Assembly (NCBI GenBank): GCA_020059915.1
Contig: JAGVBB010000003.1
Coordinates: forward strand, 160,610 to 224,609
DNA from: Minisyncoccota bacterium
Lineage (GTDB): Bacteria > Patescibacteriota > Minisyncoccia > UBA6257 > GWB1-50-10
Direction: 5' to 3'
DNA length: 64,000 nt
The notes beneath the pieces were generated by a model, which worked only from the letters and a program-made list of their open reading frames with translations, made no database searches and was not told the DNA's origin. Every line of letters begins with the position of its first letter. Position 1 is the stretch's first letter. This document shows, piece after piece, positions 4,476 to 40,775 of the stretch. The translations under genes and the position numbers were made by a program.

Positions 4476-4633
4476 GTGCGGGGAGCAGTAGGAATCGCCT
4501 CTCGCTCTACTGAGCTCGAGACCTACGGCTTCTCTTCGAAGCCTGCGGCACTAAAGTATTGCTATTTGTAGTTAATTACTTCGTAATTAAACAAACAGGG
4601 AACCCGCGGTTCGATTCCTGCCACTTACAAAAT
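4476..4633 (-). repeat. tRNA-Trp 3'-end pseudo-copy (4476-4497) plus about 135-bp structured insert; member of the gene-3'-end-associated element family
   Basis: tgcggggagcagtaggaatcg matches the 3' acceptor/T-arm of the intact tRNA-Trp (tgcgggggcagtaggaatcg) about 200 bp away. The insert carries an AACCCgCGGTTcg hairpin module shared with the rpsI-associated element (AACCCaCGGTTt) and a 38-nt block shared with the tRNA-Tyr locus. Confidence 0.45.
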
Positions 4634-4676
4634 AAAACGAGCACATCATAAAAGACGTGTTCGTTTTATTTTTTTT
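4634..4676 (-). terminator. Bidirectional terminator hairpin directly 3' of tRNA-Trp
   Basis: aacgagcac...gtgttcgtt stem flanked by an A-run and a T-run. Confidence 0.5.
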
Positions 4677-4677
4677 G

Positions 4678-4748
4678 CGGGGGCAGTAGGAATCGAACCC
4701 ACATTAGCGGTTTTGGAGACCGCTGTCCTACCGTTGAACGATACCCCC
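4678..4748 (-). tRNA. trnW: tRNA-Trp (anticodon CCA)
   Basis: Hand-folded. Acceptor GGGGGTA/TGCCCCC, D-arm GTTC..GGAC, anticodon stem GCGGT/ACCGC with loop CTCCAAA, T-arm GTGGG-TTCGATT-CCTAC. Closely resembles E. coli tRNA-Trp. Confidence 0.85.
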
Positions 4749-4834
4749 AACACACCAATAATACACAAAAATATATCAAAAGAAAACCCACATTTCTGTG
4801 GGATTTGCTAATTTCTAAAAGCTAACTGCTATCT

Positions 4835-5005
4835 TTACTTCTTTCCTTCCTTGTGTGGAGTCTTGGCGCGACACCAACTACAGAACTTCTCAAGCTCAAT
4901 TTTGCGTTGAACCTGTTTCTTGTTTTTTCGAGTCGTGTAATTCGCGTGCTTACATTTTGAACAACGAAGACGGATCAATTTTTCGGTAAATTTTCCCTGT
5001 GACAT
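4835..5005 (-). CDS. rpmG: 50S ribosomal protein L33
   Basis: A 56-aa ORF missed by the track: MSQGKFTEKLIRLRCSKCKHANYTTRKNKKQVQRKIELEKFCSWCRAKTPHKEGKK, with the CxxC...CxxC and YTTxKN L33 signature. The rpmG-tRNA-Trp linkage is classical. Confidence 0.75.
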   Translation of the reverse strand: MSQGKFTEKLIRLRCSKCKHANYTTRKNKKQVQRKIELEKFCSWCRAKTPHKEGKK

Positions 5006-5084
5006 AATAACGATATATAACTAATACAACTTACAATACTTTCAACAAAAAGTAAAGAAAATCACCTCTTCTTTATATTTTGTG

Positions 5085-5341
5085 AGCCGATGGTCGGGAT
5101 TGAACCGACGACCTACTCCTTCGCTTACACCTCTTTTTCTGATTACGCGTATAAGAGGACTAGACTGTATCTTTCCGCTCGTGGCGGACCCTTGTCAGTC
5201 GTTCGAGCGCATAATGCGCTACGGTCTTGACCATGCGTTGGCTATTAACCGTAATTCGGGATTCACATATGCATTGCTACATATGTGGGCAGAGAACGAG
5301 CGTTCTACCATGGAGTTGCTCTACCGCTGAGCTACATCGGC
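5085..5341 (-). tRNA. trnT: tRNA-Thr (anticodon GGU) interrupted by a 185-nt intron after position 36
   Basis: 5' exon 5307-5341 is GCCGATG-TA-GCTCAGCGGTAGAGC-A-ACTCC-ATGGT. 3' exon 5085-5121 is AA-GGAGT-AGGTC-GTCGG-TTCAATC-CCGAC-CATCGGC-T. The anticodon stem ACTCC/GGAGT and acceptor stem pair perfectly; the mature length is 72 nt. Confidence 0.7.
5122..5306 (-). ncRNA. Putative group I self-splicing intron in the tRNA-Thr(GGU) anticodon loop
   Basis: The 5' exon ends in U and the intron ends in G (omegaG). It has a P7-like GACUG...CAGUC pairing with a P8 hairpin (UCCGCC-ACGA-GCGGA), and an S-element-like AAGAUACAGUCUAGUCC (compare AAGAUAUAGUCC). The intron lies between anticodon positions 36 and 37. 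Confidence 0.55.
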
Positions 5342-5558
5342 TTATTACATTTTCAAATGCATCATATAATGCACTTCTCCATTGTACGAAAAATACAGGA
5401 AATGTCCACAATCCCCAGTTTTTAACTGCACTGAATACACTATCTCATAACCTCTGAGTTAATTTATAACTAAATAATGCCAAATTCCTAAATTAATTTT
5501 GAACTAAAAAGATATCCTCCAATAAAGATCTCAACAAATCTGATAATCAATACACCTC

Positions 5559-5600
5559 ATTGGTCCAGCTACTTCATATATGAAGTAGCTGGACCAATTA
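5559..5600. repeat. Perfect palindrome (about 19-bp arms) abutting the stop of the LAGLIDADG-like gene
   Basis: cattggtccagctacttcatat|atgaagtagctggaccaatt; it shares the outer stem TTGGTCCAGC with the palindrome at 6340-6381. Confidence 0.6.
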
Positions 5601-6323
5601 CTATTTTAACTTTTCAATTTCTTCCATCAAAATCTTTTTCAATTTTGAATTATGAAAATAAATAGTAACAACACCATGCTCACTTTTTCGTTTATACGTT
5701 CCCCTCCCTCGAAGTTTTGTCACAACGGGTTTTTGGAACTGCTCCTTTGGTACTCCCAATGATTTACACCAAAACCGCAAAATTTCTCGTTCATCTAAAT
5801 CACCAAAAATTTGTAAACCAAATTTCAATGCTTCTTTTTTTATTCCATATATTTTTTCAAGAAAATTGATAAATTGGATAATAACTCCAGGATCACTATT
5901 CCCCAACCGAATACTATTTCCCACCTTTGTTCCCTCGCCCCAGTATAGTCCAATTCCCAGGCCGAATAAAAACGAAGCATTGTTTGTTTCTGGATGATTA
6001 ACTAAAAAAGGATCTCCTCCCTTGTTTCTCTTTACATATGTCGCTTCACTTTGACTCCTTACTTGGATATTATGTGCAGTCATCCAATATATAACTTTAT
6101 GTTTTGAACATGAATAATATTCAGCAATCTCTTTCATTGATAGTCCTCGTTTTATATATAGAGTCTCCAATTCATTCTTAGAAAACGGACCACGAACTGG
6201 TGCCTTTCGTTCTTTTTTAACTTTCTTTAAAGAATCTATATATCGCAAACTTCTCTCCATTCTTTCTTTCTCCCTTTTTTCTCTCAATTTAACTGGATCA
6301 TATACTAACTTTTGTATTCCCAT
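5601..6323 (-). CDS. LAGLIDADG-type homing-endonuclease-like protein with N-terminal HTH (free-standing)
   Basis: FLFGLGIGLYWGEGTK motif and downstream KFGLQIFGDLDEREILRFW resemble LAGLIDADG/DOD-family endonucleases. HTH-like LSMKEIAEYYSCSKHKVIYWMTAHNI. The ORF is bracketed by two palindromes. Confidence 0.45.
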   Translation of the reverse strand: MGIQKLVYDPVKLREKREKERMERSLRYIDSLKKVKKERKAPVRGPFSKNELETLYIKRGLSMKEIAEYYSCSKHKVIYWMTAHNIQVRSQSEATYVKRNKGGDPFLVNHPETNNASFLFGLGIGLYWGEGTKVGNSIRLGNSDPGVIIQFINFLEKIYGIKKEALKFGLQIFGDLDEREILRFWCKSLGVPKEQFQKPVVTKLRGRGTYKRKSEHGVVTIYFHNSKLKKILMEEIEKLK

Positions 6324-6339
6324 ATCTACGGTATATCAC

Positions 6340-6381
6340 TCATTGGTCCAGCAATGTTGTATACAACATTGCTGGACCAAT
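6340..6381. repeat. Perfect palindrome upstream of the LAGLIDADG-like gene (partner of 5559-5600)
   Basis: cattggtccagcaatgttgtat|acaacattgctggaccaatg. Confidence 0.6.
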
Positions 6382-6486
6382 GCTTTTCCCATGCCACTAT
6401 AATTTTATCCAAAGAAAATCTCTTACGAGAATTGCATCAGAAATAAATTTTTGGTACATTAGATGGAGGAACTTTATTGTTCCTAT

Positions 6487-6558
6487 GCCACCTTAGCTCA
6501 GCGGTAGAGCAACGCTTTTGTAAAGCGAAGGTCCTCGGTTCAAATCCGAGAGGTGGCT
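6487..6558 (+). tRNA. trnT: tRNA-Thr (anticodon UGU)
   Basis: Hand-folded. GCCACCT-TA-GCTCAGCGGTAGAGC-A-ACGCT-TTTGTAA-AGCGA-AGGTC-CTCGG-TTCAAAT-CCGAG-AGGTGGC-T. Similar to E. coli tRNA-Thr(UGU). Confidence 0.85.
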
Positions 6559-6567
6559 CAAAAAATA

Positions 6568-6597
6568 AAACACCCGGTCATCCGACTGGGTGTTTTT
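6568..6597. terminator. Bidirectional terminator hairpin between tRNA-Thr(UGU) and the MFS gene 3' end
   Basis: acaccc...gggtgt stem followed by a T6 run; an A-run lies on the other side. Confidence 0.5.
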
Positions 6598-7789
6598 TAT
6601 GGTTGATAATACGAAGTGCTATTCCCCCGCTCATAATAACAAGAAATATAGAGGAAGTGAGCCACGCATATCGTATAGAATAGTTATCCGCGATCCATCC
6701 ACTTATGGGGAGTCCAATTGCCATTCCAACATGTCCCGCAAGCGCTTGTAGTGAAAGCAATGATGCTCGTTCTTCTGAAGGAATATGTGCATTCATATAT
6801 GCATCTGCAAATACACCATATGATCCACGAGAAATTTCGTGCATCAGAAACATGAATATTGAAAGAGATATTATAGGAGACAATGACGTACATATCATTA
6901 CCACACCAATAACAATTAATGAAATAATAAGCGGAACAGCAAAATCATTTCCCCCATTTTTTATTATCCTTTTTGATATGGATATACCAATAAAACTGAA
7001 TACTATAATTGCTACAAAGAACCAACCAAGCTGTGATGCTGATTGAATATATCCCTTAAAAAACGGTTGCCATTGCATGTTATATGCCTGCATTGCACAT
7101 GTTGCGATCCCAACAATAAGAAGAACATTTACCACATGTCTGCTCTGTTTTGCAAAAGACATTGTCTTTTTTGCTGTTGAAAGAAGATCTTTAAAACCTT
7201 CAGATACAGATACATAATTTCTTTTGACATGCTCTTCTTTCATGTAGATAACTGCGACAACACCAACAATGAAGAACACTAAACTACTCATAATCCATGG
7301 AGTTTGTAATCCGAATATCTCCGCGGCATATGAACCCATAAGAACACCAAATACTGCCCCAAGTTTTCTTACCTGCCCCGCACGAGTAAAAAGATTTCCT
7401 AGATCAACACTTCCTTCATGGAATGTGATGGTATCAACAATCCAGGCATCAAACGCACCAGTGGTGCATGTCATGCCAATTGCGATAATAACCTCGGCAA
7501 TTACGAACCATAAAAATTCTGGAGCAAATGCATACACAAATGTTCCAAAAGCAATAAGAAAACAAGAAACGATAAATGATGCCTTTCTCCCCCACGTGTC
7601 TGCAATAACCCCTGTCGGAAATTCGGCAAGAATAAGTGTTACTGCATACGCGGTGTTAACTAAGCTCGCATCAAGGATTGACAATCCCCTTGAAAGAAGG
7701 AACATTACATACGTAGCAAAATGAAATGACATTCCCCACTGTGTAATTCCTCCAAATGCGAGATACAAAAGATACATTCTCCGTGCCAT
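6578..7789 (-). CDS. MFS family transporter (12 TM)
   Basis: 403-aa highly hydrophobic ORF with MFS-like motifs (GVIADTWGRK, multiple TM pairs). Confidence 0.75.
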   Translation of the reverse strand: MARRMYLLYLAFGGITQWGMSFHFATYVMFLLSRGLSILDASLVNTAYAVTLILAEFPTGVIADTWGRKASFIVSCFLIAFGTFVYAFAPEFLWFVIAEVIIAIGMTCTTGAFDAWIVDTITFHEGSVDLGNLFTRAGQVRKLGAVFGVLMGSYAAEIFGLQTPWIMSSLVFFIVGVVAVIYMKEEHVKRNYVSVSEGFKDLLSTAKKTMSFAKQSRHVVNVLLIVGIATCAMQAYNMQWQPFFKGYIQSASQLGWFFVAIIVFSFIGISISKRIIKNGGNDFAVPLIISLIVIGVVMICTSLSPIISLSIFMFLMHEISRGSYGVFADAYMNAHIPSEERASLLSLQALAGHVGMAIGLPISGWIADNYSIRYAWLTSSIFLVIMSGGIALRIINHKKHPVG

Positions 7790-8162: not shown

Positions 8163-8413
8163 CGCAGGGGAGGATTCTCCTCTCACTCTGCTGAGTTCGA
8201 GACCTACGGCTTCAAAATCAAAGGATGCGGGTCGCGATGTTTTTTGGGGAGGATTTTCCTCACCCGTCACTTTCGCTCCTCCTTCGGAATCCAGGGTTCC
8301 TCGCTTTCGTTCGTTTCACTCACTCTTCGCATTCGCGCGCTCGGATACCCTTCGAATCCTCCTAGACATGAAACTAAAAAAGAAAGGACAAGTCCTTTCT
8401 TTTTTAGTTTGTG
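8163..8413 (-). repeat. tRNA-Tyr 3'-end pseudo-copy (8163-8177) plus about 235-bp insert; member of the gene-3'-end-associated element family
   Basis: cgcaggggaggattc is identical to the tRNA-Tyr 3' acceptor/T-arm 15-mer. The adjacent block ctctcactctgctgagttcgagacctacggcttc is paralogous to the tRNA-Trp locus block. A diverged match (cgctttcgttcgtttcactcactc) to the rplK/rpsI module is present, about 11/19 ungapped. Confidence 0.45.
8376..8406 (-). terminator. Terminator hairpin (aaaggac/gtccttt) directly 3' of tRNA-Tyr
   Basis: 7-bp stem flanked by A- and T-runs. Confidence 0.5.
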
Positions 8414-8496
8414 TGCGCAGGGGAGGATTCGAACCTCCGTAGCCGATAGGCGTCAGATTTACAGTCTGATACAATTGACCGCTCTGTCACCTGCGC
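8414..8496 (-). tRNA. trnY: tRNA-Tyr (anticodon GUA) with long variable arm
   Basis: Hand-folded. Acceptor GCGCAGG/CCTGCGC, anticodon stem-loop TCAGA-CTGTAAA-TCTGA, long variable arm, T-arm GGAGG-TTCGAAT-CCTCC. Confidence 0.85.
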
Positions 8497-40572: not shown

Positions 40573-40775
40573 ATCTCACGGGGTTAATTTTATCGTACTT
40601 CGTACTCAAAATTAAAAAACGGCTACGACCTTTATGCCGTAGACGTATACTCACACATGAGTATTGGTCTTTTCCTCGGTAGGACTTATGATGTATCTCT
40701 CAGTTTTGTCTTGAGATACTCAACCTACGGTCTACGGATATATGTACATATTACCCAATTTCCCCAAAAAGTCAA

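Follow-up and report, generated by a model that had tools for sequence, protein, structure and literature searches.

The window, as we call the whole 64-kb stretch of DNA analysed here, carries on its minus strand two halves of a canonical tRNA-Thr(GGU), 5341-5307 and 5121-5085, with a 185-nt insert between them. ARAGORN in intron mode reported this gene as tRNA-Thr(ggt) i(36,185) and called the spliced sequence as an uninterrupted tRNA-Thr(ggt), which forms a perfect cloverleaf (z = -3.3). An open reading frame (ORF) lies upstream on the same strand. The features of the locus are listed below.

5307-5341, minus strand: 5' exon of tRNA-Thr(GGU), GCCGATGTAGCTCAGCGGTAGAGCAACTCCATGGT, from ARAGORN intron mode and the cloverleaf fold; contains the acceptor 5' strand, D arm, anticodon-stem ACUCC, loop AU and anticodon GGU (5309-5307)
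5122-5306, minus strand: group I intron of 185 nt, AGAACG...GTAAGCG, between tRNA positions 36 and 37
5085-5121, minus strand: 3' exon of tRNA-Thr(GGU), AAGGAGTAGGTCGTCGGTTCAATCCCGACCATCGGCT; contains A37, A38, the GGAGU stem strand, variable loop, T arm, acceptor 3' strand and discriminator U
5601-6323, minus strand: 240-aa ORF, candidate free-standing homing endonuclease, 259 nt upstream of the tRNA

CCA is not encoded in the 3' exon. The insert is preceded by U and its last base is G. An earlier sequence-only reading of the window had picked out both tRNA-Thr(GGU) halves, their 185-nt spacing and these two boundary bases. ARAGORN intron mode and the cloverleaf bore out the halves, and both boundary bases proved invariant in the 106 homologues described below. 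The minus-strand orientation of the split gene was absent from that reading. Neither ARAGORN in default mode nor Rfam 15 made a tRNA call for the split gene. The Rfam 15 search of 4950-5450 (501 nt), run at the gathering score and at E ≤ 10, gave no group I or tRNA match at the locus.

The surroundings of the locus are bacterial, with genes for S2, EF-Ts, TrmD and a sigma factor. ORF P0001 of the window is identical to NCBI protein C4565_10905 (Candidatus Parcubacteria bacterium), which places the host MAG within Patescibacteria. A phage origin was considered and rejected, as blastn of 4500-6700 against phage records matched only tRNA-Thr(UGU). The contig is also present in JGI sample 3300007351.

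Conserved Group I Fold of the Insert

Homologues of the insert were collected by an exon-anchored metagenome scan for GAGCNNCTCCATGGT ... AAGGAGNNGGTC with AGTC required within the insert, which matched at least 120 contigs. Among the matches listed were 106 distinct introns of 169-202 nt. Their alignment, A1, is the basis of all covariation counts given here. The structure assigned to the window intron has 11 helices ordered P1-P2-P3-P4-P5-P6-P7-P3'-P8-P7'-P9, with a P3/P7 pseudoknot. Its elements, all on the minus strand, are as follows.

5288-5309, minus strand: P1, exon GGU (5309-5307) and intron AG (5306-5305) with CUGCC (5292-5288)
5264-5287, minus strand: P2 hairpin, CACAUAUGUA/UGCAUAUGUG, with double changes in all 10 pairs
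5258-5260, minus strand: P3 5' strand CCC, pairing with GGG 5191-5189 and forming a pseudoknot with P7
5206-5252, minus strand: P4, ACGGUU 5252-5247 with GACCGU 5226-5221; P5, 5242-5239 with 5233-5230; P6, 5220-5215 with 5211-5206
5189-5205, minus strand: R-like element, comprising J6/7, the P7 5' strand A(C)GACUG, J7/3 ACAA and the P3 3' strand GGG
5174-5188, minus strand: P8 hairpin UCCGC CACGA GCGGA, with double changes in 5 of 5 pairs
5162-5173, minus strand: S-like element, J8/7 AAGAUA and the P7 3' strand CAGUCU
5122-5160, minus strand: P9.0, GU 5160-5159 with GC 5124-5123; P9, CCUCUU 5158-5153 with AAGAGG 5135-5130; omega-G at 5122

On A1, 92.5% of the cells in this structure were paired, compared with 30-45% when the partners were slid by 1-3 columns. 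Changes on both sides were found in 39 of its 56 pairs. The covariation score was 0.468 against at most 0.137 in the slid controls, and none of 500 shuffles reached the observed values. Compensatory changes occurred in P2 (10/10 pairs), P3 (3/3), P5 (4/4), P6 (5/6), P8 (5/5), P9.0 (2/2) and P9 (5/6), and P1 also showed them across the 106 homologues. P4 and P7 are fully paired and essentially invariant, so covariation neither supports nor contradicts them. RNAalifold independently returned P1, P2, P4-P9 and an inter-exon anticodon stem (CUCC/GGAG), and the single-sequence fold of the insert showed the expected hairpins. Near-invariant or fully invariant blocks in A1 are GAAU.ACGGU, AGACCGU, CGAACGACUG.CAAGGG, A.AUACAGUCU, the guide GCC and the terminal G, while the stems between them vary.

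At the 5' splice site, G5290 is the U·G wobble partner, and an optional extension hairpin lies between the two P1 strands. The U·G and two G-C pairs of P1 were kept in 106/106 sequences, and the guide G of U36·G is invariant although the search pattern left it free. The second intron pair of P1, G-C in the window, covaries (GC:57/AU:43). An alternative P1 with a CU bulge and a long extension helix was paired in only 77%, and the continuous GGUAG/CUGCC helix was preferred by RNAalifold and covariation. P2 is closed by a GNAA tetraloop (GCAA here, 5277-5274) whose G-N-A-A form is conserved in A1. P3 is only 3 bp long; 99.7% of its cells are paired, with C-G to U-A double changes at each pair. 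P4 is invariant save for a U·G to C-G change at one pair.

The putative guanosine-binding P7 consists of A(C)GACUG/CAGUCU with a bulged C (C5201), and the adjoining AAGAUA is invariant. P7 is 100% paired and its pairs never vary, which leaves no covariation signal; CGAACGACUG-CAA is near-invariant or fully invariant and A.AUACAGUCU is invariant in the 106 sequences. UAGUC at 5163-5159 was also tried as the P7 3' strand. It was discarded, as the family-invariant block is CAGUCU and 5160-5159 covary with the intron 3' end as P9.0. This 2-bp helix joins the two bases after CAGUCUA to the two before the terminal G (AU:63/GC:42 and UA:51/CG:46) and is the predicted selector of the 3' splice site. 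The omega-G itself is invariant (106/106).

Taken together, the comparative results establish a group I architecture under selection. The insert can be assigned as a group I intron despite the silence of Rfam because its homologues show a conserved fold. The sequence-only reading had reached this interpretation from GACUG/CAGUC as P7, CCGC/GCGG as P8 and AAGAUACAGUC as J8/7-P7'. All three are present and are invariant or covarying in the 106 homologues, and the manual P1-P9 fold that it suggested was carried out and is supported by covariation. The group I interpretation thus stands on the comparative evidence, the curated model having failed. The covariance-model search with RF00028, which the same reading offered as a refutation, gave no match even at E ≤ 10 and here amounts to a false negative. 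For one homologue (L041), RF00028 gave a full-length match below threshold, at 32.7 bits against the 50-bit threshold (E 7e-7, 301-nt search).

Host Specificity and Distribution

A second scan was based on the intron core only and used one genome per species. Its pattern, CGAAYGACTGNCAA N15-45 ATACAGTCT, includes the R-like element and makes no use of the exons. At least 120 species were matched. With at least 120 matches in each of two independent pattern scans, the family is far beyond chance. After correction of the boundaries, every one of the 106 resolvable core-only matches yields tRNA-Thr(GGU) on splicing, and the intron always begins right after GGU. Of the remaining 14, 12 have these exons too, in some cases truncated by the locus ends; L133 is cut, and L134, from an Oscillospiraceae MAG, is the only listed match with a related core outside a tRNA. 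No long reading frame crosses the guessed splice junction of this non-tRNA copy.

By record title, nearly all listed matches are Patescibacteria MAGs, with at least one exception, a Niastella populi isolate. The groups matched include Saccharibacteria, Parcubacteria/Paceibacteria, Kaiser-, Wolfe-, Yanofsky-, Morani-, Doudna-, Komeili-, Uhr- and Peregrinibacteria. Many copies come out of ARAGORN as Arg(GCG) or His(GUG), since the boundary can shift by 2 nt when the intron ends in GCG or GUG.

A LAGLIDADG-Fold ORF at the 5' Edge of tRNA Genes

The upstream ORF (5601-6323) encodes an N-terminal helix, a helix-turn-helix (HTH) at about residues 49-99 and a single LAGLIDADG-fold domain at about residues 114-239. 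Its AlphaFold2 model, built with 58 homologues, has a pLDDT of 91.8 and a predicted alpha-beta-beta-alpha-beta-beta-alpha order, that of the LAGLIDADG fold. The first helix of this domain ends in GLGIGLYWGEG with an invariant G-E-G, and G121, G123, G125, L126, W128, G129, E130 and G131 are invariant in the 58 homologues. This segment, a helix with a conserved acidic residue, would correspond to the catalytic LAGLIDADG motif. The protein gave no Pfam LAGLIDADG match at E ≤ 10, where only weak HTH and DUF3606 matches appeared, no NCBIfam or PDB sequence match, and nothing in Foldseek. Its HTH (residues 45-97) matches PHROG families annotated as HNH endonucleases (E ~1e-8). The LAGLIDADG-like gene that had been noted from sequence about 260 bp from the tRNA is thus supported at the level of the fold, and the gap is 259 nt.

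To describe the linkage, loci were collected purely by intron or tRNA DNA patterns and not by protein. Of the 200 loci with enough upstream sequence, 88 (44%) have an orthologue (45-56% identity) immediately upstream in the same orientation, at a median gap of 21 nt, and 10 further loci hold C-terminal remnants only. The distance from tRNA-Tyr to tRNA-Thr(GGU) is below 1100 nt with the ORF and often below 150 nt without it. Because this spacing shrinks in ORF-less loci, the ORF is an insertion that some loci have and others lack, within a conserved cluster of tRNA genes. Sampling by protein gave the same picture from the other side: 10 of 10 orthologues stand directly upstream of a tRNA-Thr(GGU) gene, seven of these genes having the intron and three lacking it. 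In several of these orthologues the stop codon falls about 10 nt inside the tRNA.

Distant paralogues (25-37% identity) occupy the matching position, immediately upstream, at genes for tRNA-Tyr, Met, Trp, Val and Thr(UGU). Over all loci the family counts 128 ORFs, and for 93 of these the end lies no more than 30 nt from a tRNA gene on the same strand. A profile search recovered 153 clusters at E ≤ 1e-30, part of which are proteins that repeat only the HTH module. Rather than a leftover of a gene once carried inside an intron, the ORF is a member of a distinct family that is tied to particular tRNA genes at their 5' edge. We found no description of a linkage between this ORF and tRNA genes in the searchable literature, which did not include Castelle 2018.

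This family is probably selfish. Indirect signs of homing are the presence/absence polymorphism, the decayed remnants and an HTH common to phage families annotated as HNH endonucleases. The protein may cleave DNA, act as a maturase or serve as a domesticated WhiA-like regulator. We tentatively propose that the ORF at 5601-6323 may belong to a so far unannotated family of LAGLIDADG-type homing endonucleases that are free-standing and in which every clade has its own tRNA gene to flank on the 5' side. For the clade seen here this gene would be tRNA-Thr(GGU); for the paralogues it would be the gene for tRNA-Tyr, Met, Trp, Val or Thr(UGU). On this view tRNA-Thr(GGU) would be the common target of two selfish elements, its ORF clade and the ORF-less intron, and the endonuclease might mobilise the intron in trans by co-conversion. 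Strict collaborative homing, with the intron shielding the tRNA gene from the ORF nuclease, was also considered. It is weakened by the three orthologues at intron-less tRNA-Thr(GGU) genes, since an ORF found with intron-less genes does not require the intron for its maintenance.

Predicted Splicing Pathway and Alternatives

The gene structure, the integrity of the exons, the covarying conserved fold, strict specificity for the host gene and a wide occurrence were observed directly. The locus 5341-5085 on the minus strand is very probably a functional tRNA-Thr(GGU) gene whose group I intron is genuine, is spliced out and belongs to a family known from Patescibacteria. We infer that the intron is catalytic and that its splicing is independent of protein.

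Following established group I chemistry, splicing would proceed in four steps. The anticodon GGU and the first intron bases would pair with the guide CUGCC to form P1, in which U36·G marks the 5' splice site. The compact core (P3-P4-P5-P6 and P7-P3'-P8, with the P3/P7 pseudoknot) would then bind exogenous guanosine in P7 for attack on the 5' splice site. P9.0 would place the terminal G185 in the same pocket. Finally, the exon-exon anticodon stem (CUCC/GGAG) would hold the 3' exon, and ligation would yield a 72-nt tRNA.

LAGLIDADG maturases serve some organellar group I introns. The intron could accordingly need a protein cofactor, with the upstream ORF acting as a maturase that stabilises the compact core. 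The LAGLIDADG fold of the protein, its position directly upstream on the same strand in 88/200 intron loci and the minimal core, with a 3-bp P3 in only 169-202 nt, agree with such a role. A dedicated maturase would not be expected to be missing as often as this ORF or to keep intron-less company. Of 188 intron loci with 900 nt or more of upstream sequence, 104 have no ORF at the locus and 10 have only remnants, though such genomes may hold a copy elsewhere. Orthologues precede an intron-less tRNA-Thr(GGU) in 3 of the 10 protein-first samples, and intron-less genes for tRNA-Tyr, Met, Trp and Val have paralogues in front of them. We consider a maturase role unlikely.

A dead tRNA pseudogene, with an insertion no longer removed, would explain why standard tRNA and group I detectors are silent at the locus. 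Its exons rebuild a flawless tRNA, and compensatory changes maintain the exons and the intron helices over more than 200 loci and more than 100 species. In the accessible part of Table S2 of Nakagawa et al. 2026 (PMC13011429), the tRNAscan-SE count of Thr genes is two for the intron-bearing genomes and three for most of the others listed. On these entries the complete intron-bearing genomes lack another Thr(GGU) gene, and the split gene would be their sole Thr(GGU) copy. This sole-copy argument is drawn from the published genomes; for the present organism the count covers the 64-kb window, and an uninterrupted second tRNA-Thr(GGU) may lie elsewhere. Decay of the gene is very unlikely on these grounds. 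The least probable reading is that the insert belongs to another class, such as a BHB-type intron that depends on a protein endonuclease, an intron of group II or a small inserted mobile element. It stems only from the absent Rfam match, with nothing specific in its favour. Against it stand the 36/37 site in place of the canonical 37/38 bulge-helix-bulge, helices, pseudoknot, U·G, omega-G and P9.0 of group I type, the absence of group II domains at the locus (Rfam 15, to E ≤ 10), and a length of 185 nt without terminal repeats, too small for a transposon. A spliced group I intron in a working tRNA gene remains the preferred reading.

Implications

In many Patescibacteria, the gene that would be the sole tRNA-Thr(GGU) is overlooked by default tRNA finders and by Rfam, or is wrongly called Arg(GCG) or His(GUG). 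Such missed or mislabelled genes distort tRNA-based estimates of completeness and decoding. With at least 120 matches per scan, the Thr(GGU) intron family is far commoner than three published examples suggest. A natural group I intron of 169-202 nt, whose P3 has 3 bp, whose L2 is a GNAA loop and whose P9.0 has 2 bp, also offers a small predicted ribozyme scaffold. The intron itself is of modest interest; the family of LAGLIDADG-fold genes beside tRNA genes is the more promising line to pursue. If the ORF is an active endonuclease, it would add a family of endonucleases that target tRNA genes, and the spread of ORF-less tRNA introns in reduced genomes would again be an open question. Mobilisation in trans, if true, would contradict the published inference that these tRNA introns have low mobility for want of endonuclease genes.

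Comparison with Known Systems

Compared with I-DmoI, I-CreI, I-CeuI, I-Tsp061I and WhiA, the protein encoded here combines a single LAGLIDADG-fold domain with an N-terminal HTH and has no sequence match. To our knowledge, the 5' edge of tRNA genes has not been described as a position for any of these families. Zeng, Bonocora and Shub reportedly described "collaborative homing" in 2009 for a cyanophage psbA intron and the free-standing endonuclease F-CphI. As in that case, an ORF-less group I intron in a conserved gene is accompanied here by a separate endonuclease-like gene, and the present ORF, likened to F-CphI, is sporadic and leaves decayed remnants. In contrast to the F-CphI case, the ORF also stands beside intron-less tRNA-Thr(GGU) genes, so that the intron is not needed for immunity, and the nuclease here is putative.

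Among tRNA introns, the Azoarcus tRNA-Ile(CAU) intron has a CAU/GUG P1 in which the three anticodon bases form the exon side, as in the Thr intron. The Azoarcus intron and the Agrobacterium tRNA-Arg(CCU) intron likewise lie directly after the third anticodon base, and both are about 200 nt long and ORF-less, like the Thr introns. These 36/37 introns were described by Reinhold-Hurek and Shub 1992, as cited in PMC13011429. They differ in belonging to subgroup IC3 and in being found by RF00028, whereas the Thr family is invisible to RF00028 and is placed in the IA clade, on long branches, by PMC13011429. The Anabaena/cyanobacterial tRNA-Leu(UAA) intron differs in its 34/35 site, its tRNA and its subgroup (IC3). 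It shares an inter-exon anticodon stem expected to align the splice sites, as CUCC/GGAG would here; the Anabaena pre-tRNA needs this stem (Zaug et al. 1993, as cited in PMC13011429).

The closest relatives are the published Thr introns. The sequence-only reading had regarded tRNA-Thr(GGU) as an unusual host, which is outdated now that the family has been published. Nakagawa et al. 2026 (PMC13011429) reported tRNA-Thr(GGU) 36/37 introns in three Patescibacteria genomes among 95 complete genomes, and the same host, site and RF00028 failure are also found in Williams 2020 (bioRxiv 10.1101/2020.01.27.920355). In PMC13011429 these are "divergent group I introns", missed by RF00028 and ARAGORN, a term which that paper credits to Castelle et al. 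2018. The tFind model gpI_bact_tRNA.cm detects the Thr introns (PMC13011429; Williams 2020). Table 1 of PMC13011429 gives the ARAGORN miscall of Thr introns as Arg(GCG) 34/35 (row GCA_001029635.1), and the shortest tRNA intron in that paper is 184 nt.

The invariant core of the window intron matches that of the intron in CP011209.1 (L186), a complete Wolfebacteria genome in which ARAGORN also miscalls Arg(GCG). CP011209.1 is presumably GCA_001029635.1 of PMC13011429, given the identical ARAGORN miscall and the class Paceibacteria. Homology to the published introns was established through this core match. The window intron shares with the published family the host tRNA, the 36/37 site, the phylum, the length class, the RF00028 failure and the Arg(GCG) miscalls. 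It is one more member of that family, and nothing essential differs. What is new here is the scale of the family, with at least 120 matches in each scan, and an explicit secondary structure supported by covariation.

Association of the ORF family with tRNA genes

tRNA-Thr(GGU) is directly preceded by a gene of the ORF family, comprising candidate free-standing homing endonucleases, both in the window and in orthologue loci from other genomes and metagenomes (locus handles L). Members of this family are unannotated proteins of 180-280 aa, with a predicted fold of an HTH followed by one LAGLIDADG-fold domain, and their stop codon often lies about 10 nt within tRNA-Thr(GGU). Among the matches listed, the upstream ORF was found at 88 of 200 tRNA-Thr(GGU) intron loci. 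Intron-less tRNA-Thr(GGU) genes also carry it (L245, L255/L256, and L259).

ORF-family genes upstream of tRNA-Thr(GGU)
window 5601-6323 (-), ORF-family gene
L050:1997-2683, orthologue example
L242:2501-3049, orthologue example
L244:2501-3094, orthologue example
L245:1501-2088, orthologue example

At L256:333-1700, the gene order is ORF-Thr(GGU)-Tyr-Thr(UGU)-Tyr-Thr(GGU)-Trp. Adjoining the ORF is an additional copy of Thr(GGU), with a second Thr(GGU) alongside. This arrangement looks like a partial tRNA-cluster duplication that moved together with the ORF.

Paralogues with 25-37% identity to the ORF were located directly upstream of tRNA-Tyr, Trp, Val(GAC), Thr(UGU), and Met genes. Because these paralogues directly precede different tRNA genes, our results suggest that each clade of the family is tied to its own tRNA gene. 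At L219, the tRNA-Tyr downstream of the paralogue carries an intron.

ORF paralogues upstream of tRNA genes
L137:1873-2448
L010:1429-1980
L106:6376-6948
L078:2173-2529
L152:1234-1554
L188:5570-6127
L219:7476-7814, upstream of intron-containing tRNA-Tyr

The N-terminal HTH module of the ORF spans profile positions ~3-55. In a profile search of the same protein set, proteins of 400-800 aa (P0126, P0128, P0144, P0145, and others) contained 5-14 copies of this module.

tRNA clusters and further introns

Most related loci share the cluster Thr(UGU)-Tyr-Thr(GGU)-Trp. The window holds a rearranged form of it, differing by an inserted MFS transporter gene (6578-7789) and by Thr(UGU) on the opposite strand.

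tRNA genes flanking the split tRNA-Thr(GGU)
window 4677-4748 (-), tRNA-Trp
window 6487-6559 (+), tRNA-Thr(UGU)
window 8413-8496 (-), tRNA-Tyr

Elsewhere in the window, a ribosomal protein L10 leader match (40605-40755, -) scored 45.6 bits, barely above the Rfam gathering score of 44 bits, which fits a bacterial rplJ operon.

At some tRNA-Thr(GGU) intron loci, neighbouring tRNA genes carry other group I-type introns, for example tRNA-Asp i(37,219), tRNA-Tyr i(37,192), and tRNA-Met i(33,~225), given as ARAGORN intron position and length. Therefore, some Patescibacteria hold multiple introns per tRNA cluster.

Group I-type introns in neighbouring tRNA genes
L053:1426-1712 (-), RF00028 match at 38.4 bits (gathering threshold 50)
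L145:2661-2954
L219:7162-7436
L201:2728-3026
L105:5977-6270

Intron relatives outside Patescibacteria or tRNA

Several of the MAGs with core matches bear the names Gammaproteobacteria, Pedobacter, and Bdellovibrionales, labels that may be binning or naming artefacts. An Oscillospiraceae MAG (L134; genome GC 58%) contains a 183-nt element with the R and S core of tRNA-Thr(GGU) introns and P1 GGU|...GCC, located outside any tRNA. No long reading frame was found across its presumed splice junction, itself a guess. The cultured Bacteroidota isolate Niastella populi CCTCC AB 208238 carries a 181-nt intron of the tRNA-Thr(GGU) family on a 300-kb contig, at a locus lacking the upstream ORF.

Intron relatives
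L134, about 6500-6770 (-), intron-like element, JAFYHU010000012.1
L189:5269-5313, Niastella populi intron core, NZ_LWBP01000002.1

The Niastella populi intron could be a horizontal transfer out of Patescibacteria, and this isolate offers a culturable system in which splicing could be tested.
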